From Candidatus Doudnabacteria bacterium (GTDB lineage Bacteria > Patescibacteriota > Doudnabacteria > UBA920), in contig JACRDK010000004.1 in NCBI GenBank assembly GCA_016218585.1, positions 21,347 through 85,346 on the forward strand: 64,000 nucleotides of DNA, given 5' to 3'. Shown here one piece after another: positions 23,258-61,329 of the stretch. Every line of letters begins with the position of its first letter. The first letter of the stretch is position 1. Made by a program: the position numbers and the translations under genes. The notes beneath the pieces were generated by a model. That model saw only the letters and a list, made by a program, of their open reading frames with translations, ran no database searches and had not been told where the DNA came from.

Positions 23258-24229
23258 TTAAACAGTTAAATACGGCAAGCCGGAAGCTGACTGTTCCGTG
23301 GCCATTTTGTGAACCAAGTCAGAAAGCTCCTCATCGCTAAAGAACTCAATAGTAATTTTTCCGCCCTGGCCTTGGCGCTGAATTTTCACCTGGGTACCAA
23401 GCTTGCCACGGAGTTCTGTTTCCAGTGCCATTAACTTTGGATCCGGAGCGGCTGAGTCCATTTGCCTCTTGGTGGTAAGCTCGCGAACCTTAGCTTCCAC
23501 TTGGCGGACATTTAAATTCTGTTCCTGCACCATTTTATACATTAACAGCATTTTTTCGGGGTCGAGCAGGCCTAAAATTGCGCGGGCGTGCCCTTCCATA
23601 ATTTTACCTTCAATAACGCCACGCTGAATTTCCGCCGGCAAGTTTAACAAACGCACGGTATTGGCAACTGCCGGACGGCTCTTACCGACCTTCTTAGCTA
23701 CCTGTTCCTGCGTCATATTAAAAGTCTTCATTAGCCTCTCATAGGCTTGAGCTTCTTCAATCGGATTCAATTCCTGGCGCTGAATATTTTCAATAAGAGC
23801 AACTTCCAATTTCGTCTGGTCAACCATTGCGTCTTTAATAATAGCAGGCACCAATTGCATACCGGCTAATTGGGAAGCGCGAAAACGCCTTTCCCCTACC
23901 ACTAATTCATACCCAATTGGGGTTTTAGTAACAACTAACGGCTGAATGACGCCATGTTCTTTTATGGAATCGGCTAATTCTTTTAATGCAGCGGGGTCAA
24001 AAGTTTTTCTTGGCTGAAAAGGGTTTGGGGCAATTTTTGCCACTTCAATTTCCTGAATCTGAGCGTCTGCATAAGACACCCTGCCCTGCTCCGGCGTAAC
24101 CTGAGGCATTGGCACCGGCGGATTTACTATCGCATTTTCGGCAACAGCCACAGGGCTGGCAGAAGTTGGCAGCACTGACCCGTCTAAAGACTGAATTGTG
24201 ATTTTTGGTTGAGAGTTTATTTCGTCCAT
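23258..24229 (-). CDS. parB: Chromosome partitioning protein ParB/Spo0J with an N-terminal extension
   Basis: GVIQPLVV...GERRFRA...HTH region. Confidence 0.85.
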   Translation of the reverse strand: MDEINSQPKITIQSLDGSVLPTSASPVAVAENAIVNPPVPMPQVTPEQGRVSYADAQIQEIEVAKIAPNPFQPRKTFDPAALKELADSIKEHGVIQPLVVTKTPIGYELVVGERRFRASQLAGMQLVPAIIKDAMVDQTKLEVALIENIQRQELNPIEEAQAYERLMKTFNMTQEQVAKKVGKSRPAVANTVRLLNLPAEIQRGVIEGKIMEGHARAILGLLDPEKMLLMYKMVQEQNLNVRQVEAKVRELTTKRQMDSAAPDPKLMALETELRGKLGTQVKIQRQGQGGKITIEFFSDEELSDLVHKMATEQSASGLPYLTV

Positions 24230-51949: not shown

Positions 51950-53008
51950 TTGGCAAAACAAAAAAATAATAAAAATTCTGACCAATTTGAACTTAAGGAA
52001 TTCGACGGACACCGCCTAGTCTCTTTCATTTACGACCCCAAAACTAATCTGGAAGGTTTTATCGCAATTCACCGAGGAGACCCGGCTTTTGGCGCTACTA
52101 GAATTTGTTCATACCAAAATAGAACTGAGGCATTACGCGATGCGCTCAGGCTCTCCAAATTAATGTCGTACAAAGCAGCAATGGCTGGTTTGAAATATGG
52201 CGGAGCAAAATCAGTAATTATTCTTCCGAAGCAAAGTCAAAACAAAAATAACCTGCTTAAAGCCTATGCAAAAAAAGTTAATTTGCTTGGCGGACATTTT
52301 ATTACCGGTGCGGACGTTGGCATTTCTGCGGATGATGTTAAATTAATGCGGCAATCCAGTCCTTATTTTATCGGCGTTAATGTTGACCCGGTAAAATATA
52401 CAGCTTTAGGAATTTTTTACGCTTTAGAAGAATCTTTGAAAGAGATTTTTGGCGACAAAAGCTTGAGCAACAGGAGTTTCGCCATTCAGGGAGCGGGAAA
52501 AATTGGCACAGCCTTTCTAAAACATCTGTATGGGAAAACAAAAACTATTTATATTGCGGACAGCAACTTACAAAAGCTAAAAGAAGTTAAAAAAGCTTTT
52601 CCTAAAGTAATTATTACCAGCGTCGAAGACATATTTAAACAAAAAGTGGACGTGCTATCCCCTTGCGCTATGGGGCATGTTTTAAACTCCGAAACCATAA
52701 AACAAATAAGAGCGCCTTTAATTGTAGGCGGCGCAAATAACCAACTTGCAAGCCCTGAAATTGGCAATACCTTGTTTAAACAAGGTATCTTATACGCCCC
52801 CGATTATATTGTTAACGGAGGCGGAATGATTTCTGTTGTATCTGAATACGAAAATTCTAAAATAAATGACTCGAAAATAATAAAAAAACTGGATATTATT
52901 CCTCAGACTCTCGGCAAGGTCATAAAAAAAAGTTTACAACAAAAACTTGCAACCAATATTGTAGCCGATAGAATGGCTGAAAAAATATTCAACAATTTAA
53001 ATATTTAA
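51950..53008 (+). CDS. Glu/Leu/Phe/Val dehydrogenase-family amino-acid dehydrogenase (352 aa, Leu/Val/Phe-DH size); TTG start
   Basis: GFIAIHRGDPAFGATR and the KYGGAKSVI lysine motif; Rossmann fold GAGKIG. Confidence 0.75.
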   Translation: MAKQKNNKNSDQFELKEFDGHRLVSFIYDPKTNLEGFIAIHRGDPAFGATRICSYQNRTEALRDALRLSKLMSYKAAMAGLKYGGAKSVIILPKQSQNKNNLLKAYAKKVNLLGGHFITGADVGISADDVKLMRQSSPYFIGVNVDPVKYTALGIFYALEESLKEIFGDKSLSNRSFAIQGAGKIGTAFLKHLYGKTKTIYIADSNLQKLKEVKKAFPKVIITSVEDIFKQKVDVLSPCAMGHVLNSETIKQIRAPLIVGGANNQLASPEIGNTLFKQGILYAPDYIVNGGGMISVVSEYENSKINDSKIIKKLDIIPQTLGKVIKKSLQQKLATNIVADRMAEKIFNNLNI

Positions 53009-54507
53009 TGCCCACCCCGACGCCAAAACAAATTTTAAAAGATCTTAAATCCAAACAAGAAAACTACTGGCTAAAAAGAGGGGAAAATATGGCGCTCAAG
53101 CTTTTTAAGCAAATGGCAGCCAGAGTTCCCGCCTATAAAGACTTTTTAAAAAAACAAAAAATTAACCCGGATAAAATTAAATCGGGCGCAGATTTTTCTT
53201 CTGTCCCTGTAACTTCAAAAGACACTTACCTGCGCCGCTATCCGCTGGAACAACTTTGTTGGGATGGAAAATTTTCAAGCAAGCAGTGGGTAATTGCCGC
53301 TACATCGGGCTCAACCGGTGAACCATTTTATTTTCCAAGAACTTCAGAGCAAGACCGGCAATATGCATTATTAGCAGAGCTTTACTTAAAAACAAATTTT
53401 CAGATTGATAAAAAATCAACTCTTTATATAAATGCTTTTGCTTTAGGGATATGGATTGGCGGTTTGTTTACTTACCAGGCAATAAAATTAATTGCGGATA
53501 CGGGACAGTACCACTTAAGCATTATTAACCCAGGTTTAAATAAAAATGAAATTTTAAATGCGGTTAAAAAATTTGGCGGAAAATTCGACCAAATAATTAT
53601 TGGCGGCTACCCTCCATTTGTAAAAGAAGTTCTTGATGAGGGTGTTGAAAAAAAGATAAACTGGAAAAAAAATAATTTGAAATTCGTTTTTTCTGCTGAG
53701 TCATTCACTGAAAATTTTCGGGATTATATTTTAAATCTAGCCGGAGCTTCTAATCCTTATTTATCTACCCTAAACCATTACGGCACTGTTGATCAAGGAA
53801 CTCTCGCCTACGAAACGCCAATCAGCGTTTTAATTAGACGGCTCGAAGTTGAAGGGGGGCTAAAAAGCAAACCAATTTTTAGTGATTCTATGACTCAGCC
53901 AACATTAGCTCAATATTTACCTGAGATGTTTTATTTTCAAGAAGAAAGAGGGCGCCTAATTTGTTCCTCACAGAGCGGGATTCCATTATTTCGATATGAC
54001 CTGAAAGATAAAGGAGGCATAATACATTTTGAAAAAATGACAGAGCTTTTCTCAGAAAATGGCGTTGATTTAAAAAAAGAGTGTATAAATAAAAAAATTT
54101 CTGAAACGGTTTGGAAACTTCCCTTTGTTTATGTTTATGAAAGAAGTGATATGGTGGTTAGCTGGTATGGCGCCAATATTTACCCGCAGCATATCAAAGA
54201 ATCACTCCTTTTAACAGAACAGTCCGGCAAACTTACCGGCAAGTTCAGCTCCGTATTAGAGAGAGATAAAAACCACAATCCTTTTTTACACGTCAACATT
54301 GAACTTAAAAAAAATGTTCAACCCACGGCAAATCTTTCTAATTTACTAACAGCATCTTTAGTCAGAACTCTTTTAGAAAAAAATTCAGAATTTCGAAACA
54401 ACTACTCTACCCTGCCTAAAAAAAATACCCCAAAAATTACCCTTTGGCCTTATAAGAGCTCGCCTTACTTCAAAGGCGGAGGAAAACAAAAATGGACAAT
54501 AAAATAA
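53008..54507 (+). CDS. PaaK / coenzyme-F390-synthetase-like adenylate-forming ligase (ANL superfamily, COG1541-like)
   Basis: ATSGSTGEPFYFPRT P-loop analogue, YGTVDQG and RYDLKDKGG motifs; its start overlaps the upstream stop (TAATG). Confidence 0.6.
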   Translation: MPTPTPKQILKDLKSKQENYWLKRGENMALKLFKQMAARVPAYKDFLKKQKINPDKIKSGADFSSVPVTSKDTYLRRYPLEQLCWDGKFSSKQWVIAATSGSTGEPFYFPRTSEQDRQYALLAELYLKTNFQIDKKSTLYINAFALGIWIGGLFTYQAIKLIADTGQYHLSIINPGLNKNEILNAVKKFGGKFDQIIIGGYPPFVKEVLDEGVEKKINWKKNNLKFVFSAESFTENFRDYILNLAGASNPYLSTLNHYGTVDQGTLAYETPISVLIRRLEVEGGLKSKPIFSDSMTQPTLAQYLPEMFYFQEERGRLICSSQSGIPLFRYDLKDKGGIIHFEKMTELFSENGVDLKKECINKKISETVWKLPFVYVYERSDMVVSWYGANIYPQHIKESLLLTEQSGKLTGKFSSVLERDKNHNPFLHVNIELKKNVQPTANLSNLLTASLVRTLLEKNSEFRNNYSTLPKKNTPKITLWPYKSSPYFKGGGKQKWTIK

Positions 54508-54516
54508 ACAGACAAA

Positions 54517-55650
54517 ATGAAAAAAAATATTACAACAACTGAAGACCGCGAACTGTGGCAGCCAATCCACATAAAAAATATTGAGAATTGGCAAAAAACT
54601 CTTGCTAAATTAAACCAACCTTCAGGTGGTGTGACTTTTGTTAATGAGGCAGAAACGCAGCTAGAGGAGCTTTACCAATTGCGCAACCCAAAAACCAGAT
54701 TTTTGCAGGATTACAAAAAAGAGTCTGACGAATTCAAATTCAAAAACATTCACAAGACTGAATGGTTTTATTTTCCGTGGCTAAAAAAAATGGTTTTATT
54801 TCTGAAAGAAGACATGCATACTGAACTTCGGACAGGAAGAAACAGAAACTTAATTACCAGTCAGGAACAAAAAAAATTCTATAACAGCCATATTACGATT
54901 TTGGGAATGAGCGTTGGCAGCCACGTAGCGCTCACTATTGCTTTGACGGGCGGAGGAAAATTCCTCACTCTTGCAGATCCGGATAAAATTTCCGGATCCA
55001 ACATTAATAGAATTCGCACAGGTTTTTATAACCTTGGGTTAAATAAAACCAAAGCCGTCGCCAGACAAATTTTTGAAATTAATCCTTATTCTAAAATAAA
55101 AATCTATCCTGAAGGCGTTAACGAAAAAAATCTTCATTCATTATTAAACAATAAAATAGACTTATTAATTGAAGAAACCGATTATCCTTATCTAAAAATT
55201 AAAATTAGGGAAATGGTAAGGCCTCTTGGCATACCGGTTATAATGGCCGCAGATAACGGAGATGGCGTGATTGCAGATATTGAAAGATATGATAAAAACA
55301 AAAAACTTCAAATCCTGCATGGACTTTTAGGATCCATGACCTCGGAAGAGTTTAAATTAATCCCCCCTCGCAATCTGCCTAAAATTATGGCTAAAATTGC
55401 GGGCGCAAAACTTTCCAGCGTAAGGATGATTGAATCTGTTATGGAAGTTGGCAATACTTTATATTCCTGGCCGCAACTCGGAAGTGCTGCAACTTTATGC
55501 GGTTCAGTCTTGGCAAATATTGGCAGAAAAATACTGTTAGGCCAACCATTAAAAAGCGGGAGATACGATATTAATATTGACGGTTTTTTCGGCGAGGAAA
55601 AAAATAAAAAACGCAAGGCCGTGTTATTAAAAAAATTAGGTGTAGAATGA
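54517..55650 (+). CDS. E1-like ThiF/MoeB/MccB-family adenylyltransferase with an N-terminal extension of about 115 aa
   Basis: ILGMSVGSHVALTIALTGGGKFLTLADPDKISGSNINR nucleotide-binding motif; IDLLIEETDYPY; the N-terminal domain has no ThiF counterpart. Confidence 0.65.
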   Translation: MKKNITTTEDRELWQPIHIKNIENWQKTLAKLNQPSGGVTFVNEAETQLEELYQLRNPKTRFLQDYKKESDEFKFKNIHKTEWFYFPWLKKMVLFLKEDMHTELRTGRNRNLITSQEQKKFYNSHITILGMSVGSHVALTIALTGGGKFLTLADPDKISGSNINRIRTGFYNLGLNKTKAVARQIFEINPYSKIKIYPEGVNEKNLHSLLNNKIDLLIEETDYPYLKIKIREMVRPLGIPVIMAADNGDGVIADIERYDKNKKLQILHGLLGSMTSEEFKLIPPRNLPKIMAKIAGAKLSSVRMIESVMEVGNTLYSWPQLGSAATLCGSVLANIGRKILLGQPLKSGRYDINIDGFFGEEKNKKRKAVLLKKLGVE

Positions 55651-56702
55651 TTGAAAAAATAACAAAAATACTTACTGAGGCAAATTTTGCTCCATCAGGT
55701 GACAACTGCCAGCCATGGAAGTTTAAAATAACCCCTAACGGATTACTATTATTCAACTTACCCGAAAAAGATAAGTCGGTATATAATTTTAATCAAAAGG
55801 CTGCTTATATCTCGCATGGCGCATTTATAGAAAATATTAAAATTGCCGCCCTTGCACATGGTTTAAAAACCACTATAAATTTATTTCCAGACATAAAAAA
55901 CCCAGACCTCGTAGCCGAGCTTGATTTTTCGCCATCAAATGGAGAAATCGATAATTTGTATGAATTCATAGAAAAAAGACACACCAACAGAAAACCATAC
56001 CTAGCAAAGCCAATCAGTGAAAATCAACTTTCGGAACTACTAAACTTAAAAGTTGATTCTTTCGACGGGAAAATTGTAATGGTTACAGCGCGTGAACATA
56101 TAAAAACTTTAGCGCAACTATTAAGTATTAATGAGAAGATAGTATTACAAAACAAAAAACTGCACCAATTCTTGTTCGGCAATATTAGTTGGGGCCAGGA
56201 AGGCTTACAAAAAAATGACAAAATGTTCATAAAAACTCTGGAGATGAATCCGTTACAACAGTTCGTCTTCAAATTATGTTCCTCCTGGAAAATAATGAAT
56301 TTTTTTGACAAATTTGGGTTGGCAAAATTTATCTCCAAAGAGAATTCTAAAATATACTCTAACTCGGGTGCAATTGGAGCAATAATAACTTCAAAAAACT
56401 CCAAAACTGATTTTGTGCAGGGTGGCAGACTACTGCAACGAACTTGGCTATTAGCCACCTCCATGGGATTATCATTACAGCCACTTGCCGGCATGGCTCT
56501 ACTTAATCAGATATTGGTTGCGGGGCAAAGGCAAGCACTTTCGCCAGAACACGCTATGGAAATCGAGGATTCAATAAAACACATATCAACTTTGATTAAT
56601 TCCGGCGACGAAAATATAATCTTTATGTTCCGAGTCGGCGAATCATCCGCGCCTTCTGCCGTTACCCCGCGGCTTCCAGTTGAAGAAATACTCTCCAAAT
56701 AA
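55647..56702 (+). CDS. Nitroreductase-fold (two-lobed, SagB/McbC-like) FMN oxidoreductase
   Basis: APSGDNCQPWKF motif; 351 aa double-domain arrangement; ATGA overlap with the upstream gene. Confidence 0.6.
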   Translation: MIEKITKILTEANFAPSGDNCQPWKFKITPNGLLLFNLPEKDKSVYNFNQKAAYISHGAFIENIKIAALAHGLKTTINLFPDIKNPDLVAELDFSPSNGEIDNLYEFIEKRHTNRKPYLAKPISENQLSELLNLKVDSFDGKIVMVTAREHIKTLAQLLSINEKIVLQNKKLHQFLFGNISWGQEGLQKNDKMFIKTLEMNPLQQFVFKLCSSWKIMNFFDKFGLAKFISKENSKIYSNSGAIGAIITSKNSKTDFVQGGRLLQRTWLLATSMGLSLQPLAGMALLNQILVAGQRQALSPEHAMEIEDSIKHISTLINSGDENIIFMFRVGESSAPSAVTPRLPVEEILSK

Positions 56703-56704
56703 AA

Positions 56705-58375
56705 ATGACAAACTTACTCACAAATTTAGGACTTCTTTCAGTCGGCATAGCAACCGCCGCAAATATTTTATTGGGGCTAGTAGTTTATTTGAGCAACAAG
56801 AAAAGCCAAACAAATAACTATTTTTTCTTATTTACATTTATCAGTTCAATTTGGGGAATATTTAATTTTTTACTTTATCAATTTCAAGATACCATAATTA
56901 TTTTATGGTTTATTCGCCTTGTAATGTTTTGTGCTATTTGGCAAGCCTATTCATTTTTCTTATTAACCTACGTTTATCCCGAAGAACAAAAAGACCTCCC
57001 TGTCATTACAAAAAAATATCTTATTTGGATAGTAATTATAACCTCAATTATCACACTTACTCCCATTATGTACTCTTCGGTAATCCCTCCAAAAAGTATT
57101 GGACAGGTTGCTGAAGCTGTTCCTGGGCCTGGAGTTTTAATATTTGCGATTGTTGCAATTGGCCTTGTTATAGTGAGCATTATTCAATTAATAAAAAGGC
57201 ATAAAAAGATTGCTCCAACTCAACGGACGCAGCTCAACCTGCTTTTTGCGGGCACTGCGATGACCTTCCTGTTAATAATTACCTTTAACTTTATTGCACC
57301 AAACTTCTTTCAAAATTATAATTACATACCCTTAGGATCAGTTTTTGTCTTCCCGTTTATAATTTTTACGGCTTATGCAATCTTAAAACACCACCTATTC
57401 AACGCAAAAGTAATTTCAACTGAAATCGCAACTTTTTTGCTTTTAGTTGCCAGCCTTGTTGAAATTGTTTTGTCTAAAACTTCATTTGAAATTACCCTGC
57501 GGTTCGTGATTTTTCTGATTTTGCTCGCTATAAGTACTGTTCTACTTAGAAGTGTAAGAAAAGAAGTTGAGCAGCGGGAGCAGTTGGAAATTTTGACCAA
57601 AGAATTAGAAAATGCAAACGAGAAATTAAAAGCTTTGGACAAAGCCAGGGCGGAATTTATTACTATTGCTTCCCACCAGCTGCGCACGCCGCCGGCGACA
57701 ATTAAATGGTATTTAAGCTCGGTCTTAGATGGCGACTACGGAAAAGTGCCAAAAGAGTTAAAAGATATTTTAGAAAAAACTAATCGCACCAACAACTCTT
57801 TAATTTCATTAGTTGATGACATGCTAAATGTCTCACGCATAGAGCGCGGCAAAATGGAATTTTTATTTCAGGAATCTAACCTGCTTGAGCTAGCCAAAAC
57901 CACCTTTGAACAACTTGAGCCAATAGCTAAAGAAAAAGGCCTCAAGCTCACTTTCAAATATCTTCCAAAAACCAAATTCCCCAAACTTATGGCAGACAAG
58001 GAAAAAGTCCGCCAGGTTATGAATAATTTAATAGATAACGCTATAAAATATACCAAACAAGGCTCCGTGGCTGTCATGCTGTCGGCCGATAATCAAGAAA
58101 TTAAATTTAGCGTTACCGATTCCGGCAAAGGCATAACCCCGGAAGAAAAAGAAAGCATCTTTGAAAAGTTCTCCCGCGGCAAAGAATCTGTTAAACAAAG
58201 CGCGGGACTAGGACTAGGCTTGTACGTTGCCAAAATTATTATTGCCCAGCACAAAGGCAAAATTTGGGCGGAGAGCCCCGGAGACGGTATGGGTTCTTCT
58301 TTTATCTTTACCTTGCCAATTAATAATGAATTAAAAGAAACGACATTGGTGGATTTAGCAAAAAACCAAGGTTAA
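56705..58375 (+). CDS. Sensor histidine kinase with an N-terminal polytopic (7-8 TM) domain
   Basis: H-box SHQLRTP, N-box NLIDNAIKYT, G1 DSGKGI, G2 GLGLGLY; starts 3 nt after the nitroreductase stop. Confidence 0.85.
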   Translation: MTNLLTNLGLLSVGIATAANILLGLVVYLSNKKSQTNNYFFLFTFISSIWGIFNFLLYQFQDTIIILWFIRLVMFCAIWQAYSFFLLTYVYPEEQKDLPVITKKYLIWIVIITSIITLTPIMYSSVIPPKSIGQVAEAVPGPGVLIFAIVAIGLVIVSIIQLIKRHKKIAPTQRTQLNLLFAGTAMTFLLIITFNFIAPNFFQNYNYIPLGSVFVFPFIIFTAYAILKHHLFNAKVISTEIATFLLLVASLVEIVLSKTSFEITLRFVIFLILLAISTVLLRSVRKEVEQREQLEILTKELENANEKLKALDKARAEFITIASHQLRTPPATIKWYLSSVLDGDYGKVPKELKDILEKTNRTNNSLISLVDDMLNVSRIERGKMEFLFQESNLLELAKTTFEQLEPIAKEKGLKLTFKYLPKTKFPKLMADKEKVRQVMNNLIDNAIKYTKQGSVAVMLSADNQEIKFSVTDSGKGITPEEKESIFEKFSRGKESVKQSAGLGLGLYVAKIIIAQHKGKIWAESPGDGMGSSFIFTLPINNELKETTLVDLAKNQG

Positions 58376-59261: not shown

Positions 59262-60122
59262 CTAATTTTGTAAATATGCCTTTTTGGCCCCGGACACCAA
59301 GTATTTAACAAACTCTCGGGCCACATTAAACTTAGTCAGCGCTTCAAAAGACTGGAGACCCGGAAACCGGTTCACTTCCAAAATATACAGCTTGCCGTTG
59401 CTTTCCAAAATGTCGGTTTTAGCCAGCTCGCGGCCTAAAATTTTTGCTGCTTTTTGAGCCAGACTGACCGCCTCAGCCAGCATATGGTCTCCTGCGGTGG
59501 TTGAAATATTAAGCACCTGATAATTTTTAAAATCCGGCCTTTTGGTTTTTTTATTAATAGCAAACTTTAAAATAACCGGCAGGGCTTTATAGCCTGCGGT
59601 TATAACTTTATATTCATATTCCGCGTTTACAAACTCCTGAAGCATTAGCTCGCTTTCCGGGTAAGCGCCGGGCAAGGAGCCTCCGGATTTTACCAAAAAT
59701 ACATTTTTGCCCTTAAACCCATAAATCCATTTGGCAATAAATATATCCTGTTTTAAAAATTCGGATTGCATGCTAAATAGCTCGGTTTTTGGAATGGGTA
59801 AACTATTTGCGAAAAGCACCCTATAGTCATCCCATTTGCCGCCGCCTAACAAACCATCTGCAATTACCTCATCCACAACTCTTTTGCCCCTGTTTTTAAA
59901 TTTCTTGGCCAAAGAAATAACATCTTTCAAATATTTAGGGCTTCTTTGCACATAAGGATTCCTAATATAAAGAACGTCATACTCGCCAGGTTCAATAATA
60001 AAGTTTTTTTCTGCCAGTTCAACAATTGGCATTACAACAAACTCACAATTTAAATTGCCGGCTTCGGCAAACAACCGCTTAGAAGCATAAGTTTCTGATG
60101 AAGATATGGCAAGAATTCTCAT
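59262..60122 (-). CDS. ATP-grasp fold ligase (RimK / glutathione-synthetase-like)
   Basis: KLYILEVNRFPGL C-terminal ATP-grasp motif; 286 aa. Confidence 0.55.
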   Translation of the reverse strand: MRILAISSSETYASKRLFAEAGNLNCEFVVMPIVELAEKNFIIEPGEYDVLYIRNPYVQRSPKYLKDVISLAKKFKNRGKRVVDEVIADGLLGGGKWDDYRVLFANSLPIPKTELFSMQSEFLKQDIFIAKWIYGFKGKNVFLVKSGGSLPGAYPESELMLQEFVNAEYEYKVITAGYKALPVILKFAINKKTKRPDFKNYQVLNISTTAGDHMLAEAVSLAQKAAKILGRELAKTDILESNGKLYILEVNRFPGLQSFEALTKFNVAREFVKYLVSGAKKAYLQN

Positions 60123-60158
60123 ATCTTTGATTCTACGCTAAAACCTGCTATACTGACA

Positions 60159-60255
60159 ATGTCGCATAATGCATTTATGAGCCATGCAAAAAAGACGTGG
60201 TCGTAATATGTCCTGTGGGCATTGTGGATAAACTATGATGTCGCATAATGCATTT
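60159..60255 (+). promoter_or_regulatory. Two 18-bp direct repeats, ATGTCGCATAATGCATTT, 79 bp apart upstream of the xer gene; the second resembles a dif-like site
   Basis: GTCGCATAA + TGCATT + TTAAATTA compared with E. coli dif GTGCGCATAA + TGTATA + TTATGTTAAAT. Confidence 0.4.
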
Positions 60256-60273
60256 TAAATTACCAAAAAGTTT

Positions 60274-61329
60274 ATGGCCGAAATTAAAACAAAACTAGAC
60301 TCCCCTCTTTACCGTTATATAACGGAGTTTTTGGAATTCTGTGAAATTGGTAAAAACCAGAGCCGCAACACTATTGCCGCTTATTACCGCTACCTAAATA
60401 AATTTTTAAACTTTGCCATTCCTTTGGGAGTAAAAGATCCAAAAGATATTGATTTGGAAATCATTAAAAAGTACCGCCTCTATTTAAACAGGCTGCAGGA
60501 TGATAAAGGCAACACTCTAAAACTGGTTACCCAAAACTATCATTTAATAGCTTTGCGGGCTTTCTTGAAATACTTGGCGAAGCAGGACGTAAAAACCCTT
60601 TCTCCGGAAAAAATTGAACTTCCAAAAAACCCTCAAAGACAAGTTGAGTTCCTGGAAAAAGAGGAATTGGAAAGGCTGTTTCAGGCTGTGGCCAATGAAA
60701 AAGATGAATTACAGCGACTGCGCGACTCAGCTATTTTACATACTCTCTTTTCCACCGGACTGCGGGTATCCGAACTTGCTTCCCTAAAAATAGAAAGCAT
60801 TAACTTAGACCGAAGGGAATTTACCGTACGCGGCAAAGGCAGTAAACTTCGCCTGGTATTTTTGTCGGACGAAGCGGCGGAAACAATAAAGAAATATTTG
60901 GCTAAACGAAAAGATAACAGCAAGGCGCTGTTTGTCGGACACTCGGAAATAGGCCAATCATCCCCTGCCGCCAAAACCCCAGGCAAAGGTGAAAAGCTTA
61001 CAGCGGAACAAAAAAAAGTAGAAAAAGAAATTGCCAGCCAGGGCTTTAGCAAAAATGGGGACAAAAATACCAATAGAGCCAGCGGTTTAACAGTCAGGCA
61101 AATCCAAAGAATAATAAAAAAATATTGCCGCGTGGCGGGAATAATAAAAAAAGTTACTCCACACACTCTTCGCCATAGCTTTGCCACAGACCTGCTGCAA
61201 AACGGGGCAGATATCCGCTCAGTGCAAACCCTGCTCGGGCACGCCTCAATAACCACTACCCAAATTTACACGCACATTACCAACCAAGGCCTGCGTGATA
61301 TTCATAAAAAATTCCACGATAAAAAATAA
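60274..61329 (+). CDS. xerC: Tyrosine site-specific recombinase (XerC/XerD family) with an internal insertion of about 50 aa
   Basis: R..HxxR...Y catalytic box: TPHTLRHSFATDLLQNGADIRSVQTLLGHASITTTQIYTH. Confidence 0.8.
   Translation: MAEIKTKLDSPLYRYITEFLEFCEIGKNQSRNTIAAYYRYLNKFLNFAIPLGVKDPKDIDLEIIKKYRLYLNRLQDDKGNTLKLVTQNYHLIALRAFLKYLAKQDVKTLSPEKIELPKNPQRQVEFLEKEELERLFQAVANEKDELQRLRDSAILHTLFSTGLRVSELASLKIESINLDRREFTVRGKGSKLRLVFLSDEAAETIKKYLAKRKDNSKALFVGHSEIGQSSPAAKTPGKGEKLTAEQKKVEKEIASQGFSKNGDKNTNRASGLTVRQIQRIIKKYCRVAGIIKKVTPHTLRHSFATDLLQNGADIRSVQTLLGHASITTTQIYTHITNQGLRDIHKKFHDKK

Follow-up and report, generated by a model that had tools for sequence, protein, structure and literature searches.

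Half-dif boxes in the promoter region of a Doudnabacteria xer gene as candidate operators for the Xer recombinase

The window, by which we mean the whole 64-kb stretch of DNA that was analyzed, contains a 151-bp intergenic region (60123–60273) with a minus-strand gene for a RimK-like ATP-grasp protein on one side and the plus-strand gene xer on the other (Table 1). By public annotation of an exactly matching protein, the DNA comes from a Candidatus Doudnabacteria bacterium, which belongs to the Candidate Phyla Radiation (CPR, or Patescibacteria). The translation of xer carries all of the catalytic residues of a tyrosine recombinase (R, K, H-x-x-R, H, and Y) together with an insertion of ~50 amino acids. 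In a PDB search it matched XerD (1a0p) at 3.2e-37 and XerH only at 1e-15, and its best NCBIfam matches were to XerD, XerC, and XerA at 231 to 240 bits, with XerD and XerC slightly higher than XerA and under their own cutoffs; the sole family cutoff passed was that of XerA_Arch (NF040815, 230.9 bits against a cutoff of 220), and XerS reached 114 bits, below its cutoff of 267. These matches place the recombinase outside the XerS and XerH families. As a gene, xer is chromosomal and syntenic, and is described as housekeeping, and the second xer gene that the earlier note had proposed to look for was not found within the 64-kb window.

Table 1 Features of the xer locus, with positions numbered from the first nucleotide of the window
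Feature	Position	Strand	Evidence or remark
RimK-like ATP-grasp gene, divergent from xer	59262–60122	−	conserved beside xer within the Doudnabacteria clade
Predicted promoter P1 towards xer, TTGATT-16-TATACT with TG	60127–60154	+	consensus scan
Predicted divergent promoter of the ATP-grasp gene, TTGTCA-18-TAGAAT	60130–60159	−	consensus scan, 10/12 matches
Box copy 1 (C1), ATGTCGCATAATGCATTT	60159–60176	+	exact repeat; core conserved upstream of xer in relatives
TTATGAGCCAT, inverted 9/11 match to the C1 arm	60175–60185	+	read from sequence
Block M, GTCGTAATAT, degenerate third box oriented as C1 and C2	60200–60209	+	16-species alignment
Conserved block CTGTGGGCATTGTGGATAA	60213–60231	+	contains TGTGGATAA and TTGTGG
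Box copy 2 (C2), same 18-mer as C1	60238–60255	+	exact repeat; kept in relatives
xer, 351-aa tyrosine recombinase, XerD/XerC/XerA-like	60274–61329	+	Pfam Phage_integrase, 3.6e-43

The intergenic region holds the only two copies of the 18-mer ATGTCGCATAATGCATTT in the 64-kb window, both on the plus strand and 79 bp apart from start to start, exactly as the earlier note had reported. No third match was found in the window with up to three mismatches allowed, where dinucleotide shuffles expect 0.10, and none of 100 such shuffles gave two or more matches to the 18-mer. C1 consists of an 11-bp core, ATGTCGCATAA, which resembles an arm of dif, followed by seven conserved bases; C2 ends 18 nt 5′ of the xer ATG, and the sequence that follows it is TTAAATTA, again as had been reported. 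Beyond the 18-mer there is no exact identity between the copies, and upstream of them merely a loose likeness (TATACT-N5 and TAAACT-N4). Block M lies midway between the copies, 39 to 40 bp from each; in the 16-species alignment its GTCG is invariant and the next bases are mostly conserved, and in three relatives (L008, L010, and L085) it reads GTCGCAAT, which scores as a weak box. The conserved block that follows contains TGTGGATAA at 60223–60231, which equals a perfect DnaA-box sequence, and across the two-copy clade TGTGGA is invariant and TGTGGATAA nearly so; from its sequence a role of this block as a DnaA box or as a −35 element is possible. The inverted match TTATGAGCCAT lies 5 bp from the C1 arm, out of register with the 7-bp spacing found in relatives, it shows no conservation in L001–L003 or L206–L208, and it is probably nonfunctional.

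The comparison set consisted of 80 related xer loci, one genome per species, and several more that were reached by exact protein look-up. The core TGTCGCA[T/C/A]AA occurs just 5′ of xer, within ~250 bp, in ~50 of the 80 CPR loci, among them distant groups (Paceibacterota, Moranbacteria, Vogelbacteria, and Berkelbacteria) whose Xer proteins are 47 to 55% identical to the query. Exact matches to RTGTCGCAHAAY in the window and in ~700 kb of related DNA all lie upstream of xer, one of them as far as ~900 bp from it, and the density of GTCGCA is tenfold higher within 250 bp upstream of xer than elsewhere (3.6 against 0.36 per kb). In the related loci the information content is limited to positions −2 to +12, about 13 to 15 positions (RTGTCGCAYAATRT), and no second arm conserved across the related loci overall was found; the box is a roughly 13-bp asymmetric element, RTGTCGCAYAAYR. 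In lineages with a single box it lies mostly 20 to 40 bp before the ATG and in either orientation; it is on the strand opposite to xer in ~20 lineages, and in Moranbacteria it overlaps the xer start codon.

The two-copy array, with a spacing of 77 to 79 bp, is kept in at least 16 Doudnabacteria species. It is ~107 bp long and runs in the order C1, M ~40 bp on, the TGTGGATAA block, and C2, its internal blocks being the degenerate box midway, then CTGTGG, and then TTGTGGATAAC. At both copies the closest relatives (84 to 88% protein identity) retain RTGTCGCATAAYGCATT, conservation ends after 17 to 18 bp, and the sequence is randomized directly after it; the variable position 12 carries the same base in C1 and C2 in six of the seven closest genomes, which could reflect recombination between the copies. 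Because it is conserved in relatives, we take the repeat to be far more than chance, and the absence of the repeats from relatives, which the earlier note had named as grounds for abandoning its proposal, was not what we found. The retention of layout, spacing, and internal blocks in at least 16 species also speaks against the suggestion that the intervening unit of ~80 bp might be excised. Within the two-copy clade C2 lies anywhere between 24 and ~100 bp from the ATG, and therefore the constant unit is the array itself, not its position relative to the start codon.

The core ATGTCGCATAA is identical at 11 of 11 positions to the XerC-side arm of a common and widespread class of dif, TGTCGCATAA-N6-TTATGTTAAAT. 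A metagenome scan with the pattern TGTCGCAHAA-N6/7-TYATGTTAAA gave at least 120 sites, on contigs of 22 to 68% GC, and the matches listed are strongly canonical at positions on which the pattern sets no constraint: an A precedes TGTCGCA in 78 of 120, the last spacer base is A in 90 of 120, the base after the right arm is T in 101 of 120, and the commonest central region is TATATA. We regard these matches, from their sequences, as ordinary dif sites that are not adjacent to xer. A subgroup with a 7-bp center, TGTCGCATAACGTAATTTTATGTTAAAT, has swapped flanks and inovirus genes (Zot and Rep_trans), a pattern that we read as the integration of mobile elements into the dif of an organism outside the CPR. 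The idea that the copies at xer might themselves be attP-like, of phage or plasmid origin, was rejected, the matches found in viral contigs being judged compatible with chance for 15- to 16-mers by a rough estimate of collection size; none of these matches adjoined a xer homologue.

The likeness to dif that had been claimed for the copies accordingly stands for one arm of a widespread class and not for the E. coli arms, nor for a complete site. Taken as full 28-mers the copies match dif no better than shuffles do: copy 2 agrees with a 28-bp dif at 18 of 28 positions, and shuffled sequences reach 19 to 21. The full-length comparison with dif of E. coli, B. subtilis, and H. influenzae stayed at the level of chance. 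The alignments that the earlier note had recommended gave only chance-level agreement: the intergenic region matches the dif arms of E. coli (7/11 and 8/11), B. subtilis, and F. alni at the level of chance, and shows no match above chance to the arms of difSL and difH (arm sequences from PMC3025954 for the first three and from PMC5357621 for difSL and difH). In a scoring of partner arms, palindromic or of the canonical XerD type, over all spacers from 0 to 25, none was found at 6 to 8 bp from C1 or C2 in the window, and none was conserved among the closest relatives (84 to 88% protein identity). Each copy in the window is on this basis best described as a half-site rather than a complete dif. 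A dif is expected to have two imperfect inverted arms of ~11 bp around a center of 6 to 8 bp, to lie at the terminus, where compositional skew changes sign, and to be present once per genome. The canonical dif is a 28-bp sequence in which an XerC arm and an XerD arm are separated by 6 bp, as in E. coli GGTGCGCATAATGTATATTATGTTAAAT (PMC3025954). The window shares with it the 11-bp XerC-side arm and the adjacency of a gene for an XerD/C/A-like recombinase, and differs from it in having one arm in two direct copies, 79 bp apart and in a promoter region, with neither a conserved XerD-type arm nor a skew switch.

Complete two-arm dif-like sites do occur at the position upstream of xer in eight relatives. 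Exact inverted CGAC was found at four sites with a 7-bp spacer and at one with 8 bp, and at nearly every other spacer the count was zero. Palindromic two-arm sites lie directly before xer in L014, L019, L023, L025, and L026 (7 bp) and in L020 (8 bp), and in L008 and L013, which fall in different subclades, C2 is followed after 7 bp by a canonical XerD-type arm (TTATGTTAAA, 10/10, and TCATGTTAAA, 9/10, respectively). Because two-arm sites are seen there in these eight relatives, the position upstream of xer has held complete dif-like sites, either repeatedly or ancestrally, and by the same sites the locus can be read as capable of being a genuine recombination substrate. What is left in the window and in its closest relatives is the half-site alone. 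Since some relatives still have full two-arm sites there, the boxes probably descend from an ancestral dif-like site adjacent to xer.

A terminus at the locus, for which the earlier note had proposed a check by GC skew, is not indicated. Skew is negative throughout positions 1–64000, the cumulative curve is monotonic, and there is no switch at the locus, in a test with 3.7 kb of sequence on its right side; from 1 to 51 kb every gene is on the minus strand, a plus-strand block follows at 52 to 58 kb, and skew is still negative through that block and past xer. With 10-kb flanks no switch was seen in L082 (a 1.21-Mb contig) or in L085 (a 372-kb contig), where genes lie on the same strand on either side of xer. 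In L081 (a 699.5-kb contig with xer at 50.3%) skew does pass from positive to negative, and this is confounded by one gene of 1768 amino acids with unusual composition. Complete or near-complete genomes of the clade include CAWINB010000001.1 (699,532 bp), with xer at ~351.7 kb, and CAYYWQ010000001.1 (1.21 Mb), with xer at ~694 kb. Among 51 loci analyzed with 4-kb flanks the sign changed in 14, in inconsistent directions, and no clear switch was found at the loci with full two-arm sites. A replication origin, which the presence of TGTGGATAA brought into consideration, was rejected, since skew does not switch and neither dnaA nor dnaN is close by. The locus is 36 kb from a chromosomal parB; in most bacteria parB is closer to the origin than to the terminus, and its place here is weak evidence on where either lies.

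The boxes overlap predicted promoter elements, which are consensus matches from a scan. P1 has the extended −10 sequence TGCTATACT at 60146–60154 and ends 5 nt before C1, placing its predicted transcription start at about the first bases of C1, and the arrangement GCTATAMT-N5-TGTCGCA recurs in the window and in L001–L003, L009, L011, L014, L017–L020, and L045. The predicted divergent promoter, a strong match, touches C1 with its −35, and the alignments show its ATTCTA block to be conserved; its −10 stops 7 nt short of the start codon of the ATP-grasp gene, so that the ATP-grasp mRNA would be leaderless. A second promoter towards xer is possible, with CATAAT inside C2 (60244–60249) as its −10 hexamer and TTGTGG (60222–60227), 16 bp before it, as its −35. 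Single-box lineages have −10-like hexamers 6 to 7 nt from the ATG, a distance that implies leaderless mRNAs there as well; the box is placed between or over these hexamers, often with a −35 position on one side of it and TATAAT on the other. Overlap with the core promoter or start point, in a position kept irrespective of orientation, is thus found at the level of predicted promoters, and a fixed place combined with free orientation would be expected of a DNA operator; neither a promoter hexamer nor an element in the RNA would be expected to show it.

The reading that fits the boxes best, to which we give close to even chances, is that they are Xer-binding operators through which xer regulates its own expression, in line with the regulatory role that had been suggested as one option for the doubled site. 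C1 and C2 would be two strong copies of a box of ~13 bp that occupies the promoter region of xer in a large part of the CPR, and the protein most likely to bind it would be the Xer encoded beside it; we infer Xer as the likeliest binder from the identity of the core with the XerC-side arm of ordinary dif sites and from the confinement of the box to places beside xer. A protein on C1 would cover the predicted P1 start point and touch the −35 of the divergent promoter, and one on C2 would cover the predicted −10 of the second promoter, so that rising Xer would fill the boxes and block RNA polymerase. Such negative autoregulation would keep an enzyme that cuts DNA at a low and steady level, by means of an array probably derived from the ancestral dif-like site.

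There are parallels for this logic among transposons. The 12-bp ATGTCCRCTAAY motifs of Tn5401 TnpI also repress the tnpI promoter, and the res sites of Tn3 and gamma-delta, with several recombinase-binding subsites in a divergent promoter region, serve as recombination site and operator alike. The res system uses a serine recombinase and inverted subsites that bind dimers, making this an analogy of logic only. We know of no description of autoregulation for XerC, XerD, or XerA. If the boxes are operators, the locus would clearly exemplify a chromosomal Xer that sets its own level by way of half-dif sites. A further precedent for the operator reading is Tn4430 TnpI, which has repeats of its own binding motif beside its core site (PMC2847244). 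The likeness lies in several copies of a recombinase motif, direct repeats included, within ~110 bp beside the recombinase gene (PMC2847244). The motif repeats of Tn4430 are accessory sites, whereas those of the window are only likened to them and their binding is predicted; moreover, the Tn4430 IRS lies in a transposon and has a clear inverted-repeat core, IR1-IR2, which the window lacks.

Against the operator reading stand the variable distance from C2 to the ATG, the full sites in eight relatives, and the base shared by C1 and C2 at position 12, and these would sit well with its main rival, the array being a working recombination site, either for the resolution of chromosome dimers or of the res/IRS type. 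We consider this unlikely, though it is to be taken seriously, and sequence alone cannot separate it from an operator. One box and a weak, unconserved arm would form the crossover core, C1 and M would be accessory Xer-binding sites that impose a resolution-only selectivity, and autoregulation would be a by-product of the overlap with the promoter. The model for this is the 116-bp IRS of Tn4430, where the DR1 and DR2 motifs give TnpI its resolution selectivity (PMC2847244), and to which the ~107-bp array is close in length. Of the features of that type, the direct repeats C1, M, and C2 are present in the window, and the inverted core is absent from it and present at C2 in L008 and L013. The existence in nature of 7-bp-spacer dif sites that have the same left arm and carry integrated inoviruses also favors recombination, as does the constancy of the array next to an ATG distance that is not constant, and the concerted changes in C1 and C2. 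Against it, neither copy in the window has a recognizable partner arm at 6 to 8 bp, no skew switch accompanies the locus in the window or in most relatives, those with full sites included, and single-copy deletion products are not seen in the two-copy clade.

Recombination at such a place would have company in the XerS/difSL, XerH/difH, and some XerA/dif systems, which are adjacent modules of site and gene (PMC1914069, PMC5357621). The earlier note had compared the locus with the first two of these, and the comparison holds in that a recombinase-related site lies directly upstream of the gene, with a linkage that is lineage-wide (PMC1914069, PMC5357621), and fails in that the recombinase is not XerS or XerH and the arms are unmatched. 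In difSL and difH, moreover, two conserved arms lie at the terminus, unlike the window, where the flank of the box is unconserved even in the closest relatives. The archaeal XerA/dif system is similar in that the window protein passes the XerA_Arch cutoff (PMC2958812, PMC5357621), and some archaea have a xerA/dif module and a dif that is not always opposite the origin (PMC2958812, PMC5357621), but archaeal dif is a complete 28-bp site and the window has half-sites only. If the boxes recombine, the idea of a xer-dif module known from XerS, XerH, and some XerA would extend to an XerD/C/A-type enzyme, and an accessory-site architecture would be added to a chromosomal Xer system.

The two functions may also be combined, and we regard as improbable, but worth stating, an undescribed CPR xer-dif module in which a single XerA/D-like recombinase has its site in its own promoter. 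In Doudnabacteria this would take the form of a res/IRS-like array, with C2 and a weak arm as the core and M and C1 as accessory sites, that would confer resolution-only selectivity without a terminus position or FtsK and would provide autoregulation as well. To our knowledge, chromosome dimer resolution is essentially unstudied in CPR bacteria, whose genomes are tiny and whose cell-cycle machinery is reduced, and full-text literature searches on Xer or dif in CPR or Patescibacteria found no paper. The elements of the locus are all of known kinds (a dif arm, a site linked to xer, and recombinase-binding repeats beside a recombinase gene); it is their combination, an array of dif-arm half-sites tied to an XerD/C/A-type gene across the CPR, that appears to be undescribed. 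A dif-arm box that tracks xer across many CPR phyla offers a clonable target of 13 to 28 bp for Xer binding and recombination, and for the prediction of dif it means that a good match to the XerC arm beside a xer gene is insufficient for a dif call.

It is quite improbable, in our estimation, that the boxes are bound by some other protein or are promoter elements of xer, with CATAAT as a −10 and a likeness to the dif arm that is coincidental. The hexamer CAYAAT does fit a −10, TTGTGG lies 16 bp upstream of it, and L017 has CACAAT 7 nt before the ATG, but ~20 lineages have the box on the strand opposite to xer, and elsewhere it lies upstream of a better TATAAT, and therefore it cannot be the xer −10 in general. 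As for another protein, the conserved TGTGGATAA, with its perfect match to a DnaA box, could couple expression of xer to replication. A general regulator should, however, have sites at other genes, of which there are none in ~700 kb, and identity to the dif arm at 11 of 11 positions, including the preferred first A, beside a gene for Xer would be hard to obtain by chance.

An element acting at the level of RNA, either a structured 5′ leader or a short upstream ORF (ATG TCG CAT AAT, M-S-H-N), is very improbable. Transcription from P1 would begin at C1, an ORF of 15 codons opens at C1 and one of 6 codons at C2, and an ORF of 15 codons that ends in the M block is present in 6 of 16 relatives. The ORFs nevertheless range from 6 to more than 37 codons, nothing is conserved past MSHN, some of them do not open with a start codon, and ordinary dif arms likewise favor A at the first position; the upstream-ORF reading was rejected because neither ORF length nor start codon is conserved and because many lineages have the box on the strand opposite to xer, an arrangement that also argues against an RNA element of any kind. 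For a structured leader, RNAalifold gave −2.8 kcal/mol with 7 pairs, no compensatory changes, and no consensus structure, the single-sequence fold had a z of −1.07, and there was no Rfam match at gathering or E-value thresholds.

Finally, a neutral local duplication of promoter sequence without function is scarcely credible, given that the two copies and their 77- to 79-bp spacing are kept in at least 16 species, over a divergence that has taken their Xer proteins to ~70% identity and has randomized the DNA between and after the blocks; the −10-like hexamers that precede both copies (TATACT and TAAACT) are compatible with a duplicated unit of promoter plus box.

Within the two-copy clade, which comprises 16 Doudnabacteria species that keep both copies of the 18-bp direct repeat (the box) at 77-79 bp spacing upstream of xer, the TGTGGATAA block between the copies is almost invariant, three genomes having TGTGGACAA in its place; 10 bp upstream of it lies a weaker block, CTGTGGG/CTGGGGA. 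The TGTGGATAA block could be a DnaA site or a -35 element (TTGTGG), or else a form of the box that lacks one base. In many CPR lineages the xer start codon, like that of the divergent RimK-like ATP-grasp gene in the window, is preceded at 6-7 nt by a -10-like hexamer, and the shortness of this distance at both genes suggests that leaderless mRNAs are common at these loci.

The base following the box core (AAT versus AAC; window 60170 and 60249) varies between genomes, and yet the two copies agree at it in six of the seven closest genomes, with equivalent positions compared in L001, L002, and L206-L208. Such agreement could be due to recombination or gene conversion acting from one copy on the other, or alternatively it could have arisen by co-evolution with the binding protein. 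In the lineages of two relatives, L007 and L085, the array, as read from the added box-like sequences, is expanded further, and some of the additions form a palindrome, GCACAAT/ATTGTGC. Some two-copy relatives carry long inverted repeats, which in L015 include 18 nt at 100%, and a related GGTAGC-rich sequence is found in L008 and L012. A contig classed as viral (L293, IMG/VR 3300046002_005207) contains ATGTCGCACAATATT twice in direct orientation at a distance of 64 bp, with TTATAAT after the second copy; the gene downstream is truncated in this locus.

Because of the Xer insertion, the protein aligns to XerD and XerA in two separate stretches, and the inserted region differs in length among relatives, whose proteins range from 326 to 409 aa. 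The parB gene has BacA as its neighbor with no ParA adjoining, and since it lies 36 kb from xer, it hints that the region is origin-proximal rather than terminus-proximal. Essentially every gene in window 1-51400 is on the minus strand, and this is followed by a 6.5-kb plus-strand block (51950-58375) with glutamate dehydrogenase-like, nitroreductase-like, and histidine kinase genes; GC skew is negative in both, while AT skew reverses with gene orientation.

The Doudnabacteria genome L081 (699.5-kb contig) has a serine recombinase region that probably represents an integrated element, because relatives L082 and L085 are without that gene set 3' of xer. Metagenome contigs of GC ~0.35-0.40 (within L096-L203) have in common the site TGTCGCATAACGTAATTTTATGTTAAAT, which has a 7-bp center, but join it to differing left and right flanks. 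Inovirus genes (Zot, Rep_trans) are present on L098 and L186, and these contigs look like filamentous phages integrated at a dif site of a non-CPR host.

Features of the xer locus, its window, and related loci
Feature	Location	Strand	Remarks
-10-like hexamer	window 60130-60122	-	6-7 nt ahead of ATP-grasp start codon
TGTGGATAA	window 60223-60231		between copy 1 and copy 2; perfect DnaA-box sequence
ParB gene	window 23258-24229	-	complete (N-terminal, HTH, C-terminal domains)
Low-complexity insertion, ~50 aa (…SSPAAKTPGKGEKLTAEQKKVEKEIASQGFSKNGDKNTNRASG…)	Xer residues about 216-266 (gene, window 60274-61329)
Further box-like sequences, GTCGCAAATTATTGCAATATTGTGCAACG, ATCGCACAATATTG	L007 3900-4000; L085 9900-10000		past copy 2
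Long near-perfect inverted repeats	L015 3889-3944; L011 3899-3989		inserted between copy 2 and xer start codon
ATGTCGCACAATATT pair	L293 13443-13521
Large serine recombinase gene (Resolvase + Recombinase domains) and ~10 small unannotated ORFs	L081 11315-17300		directly downstream of xer
TGTCGCATAACGTAATTTTATGTTAAAT site examples	L098 514-540; L125 99-125; also L186, L151
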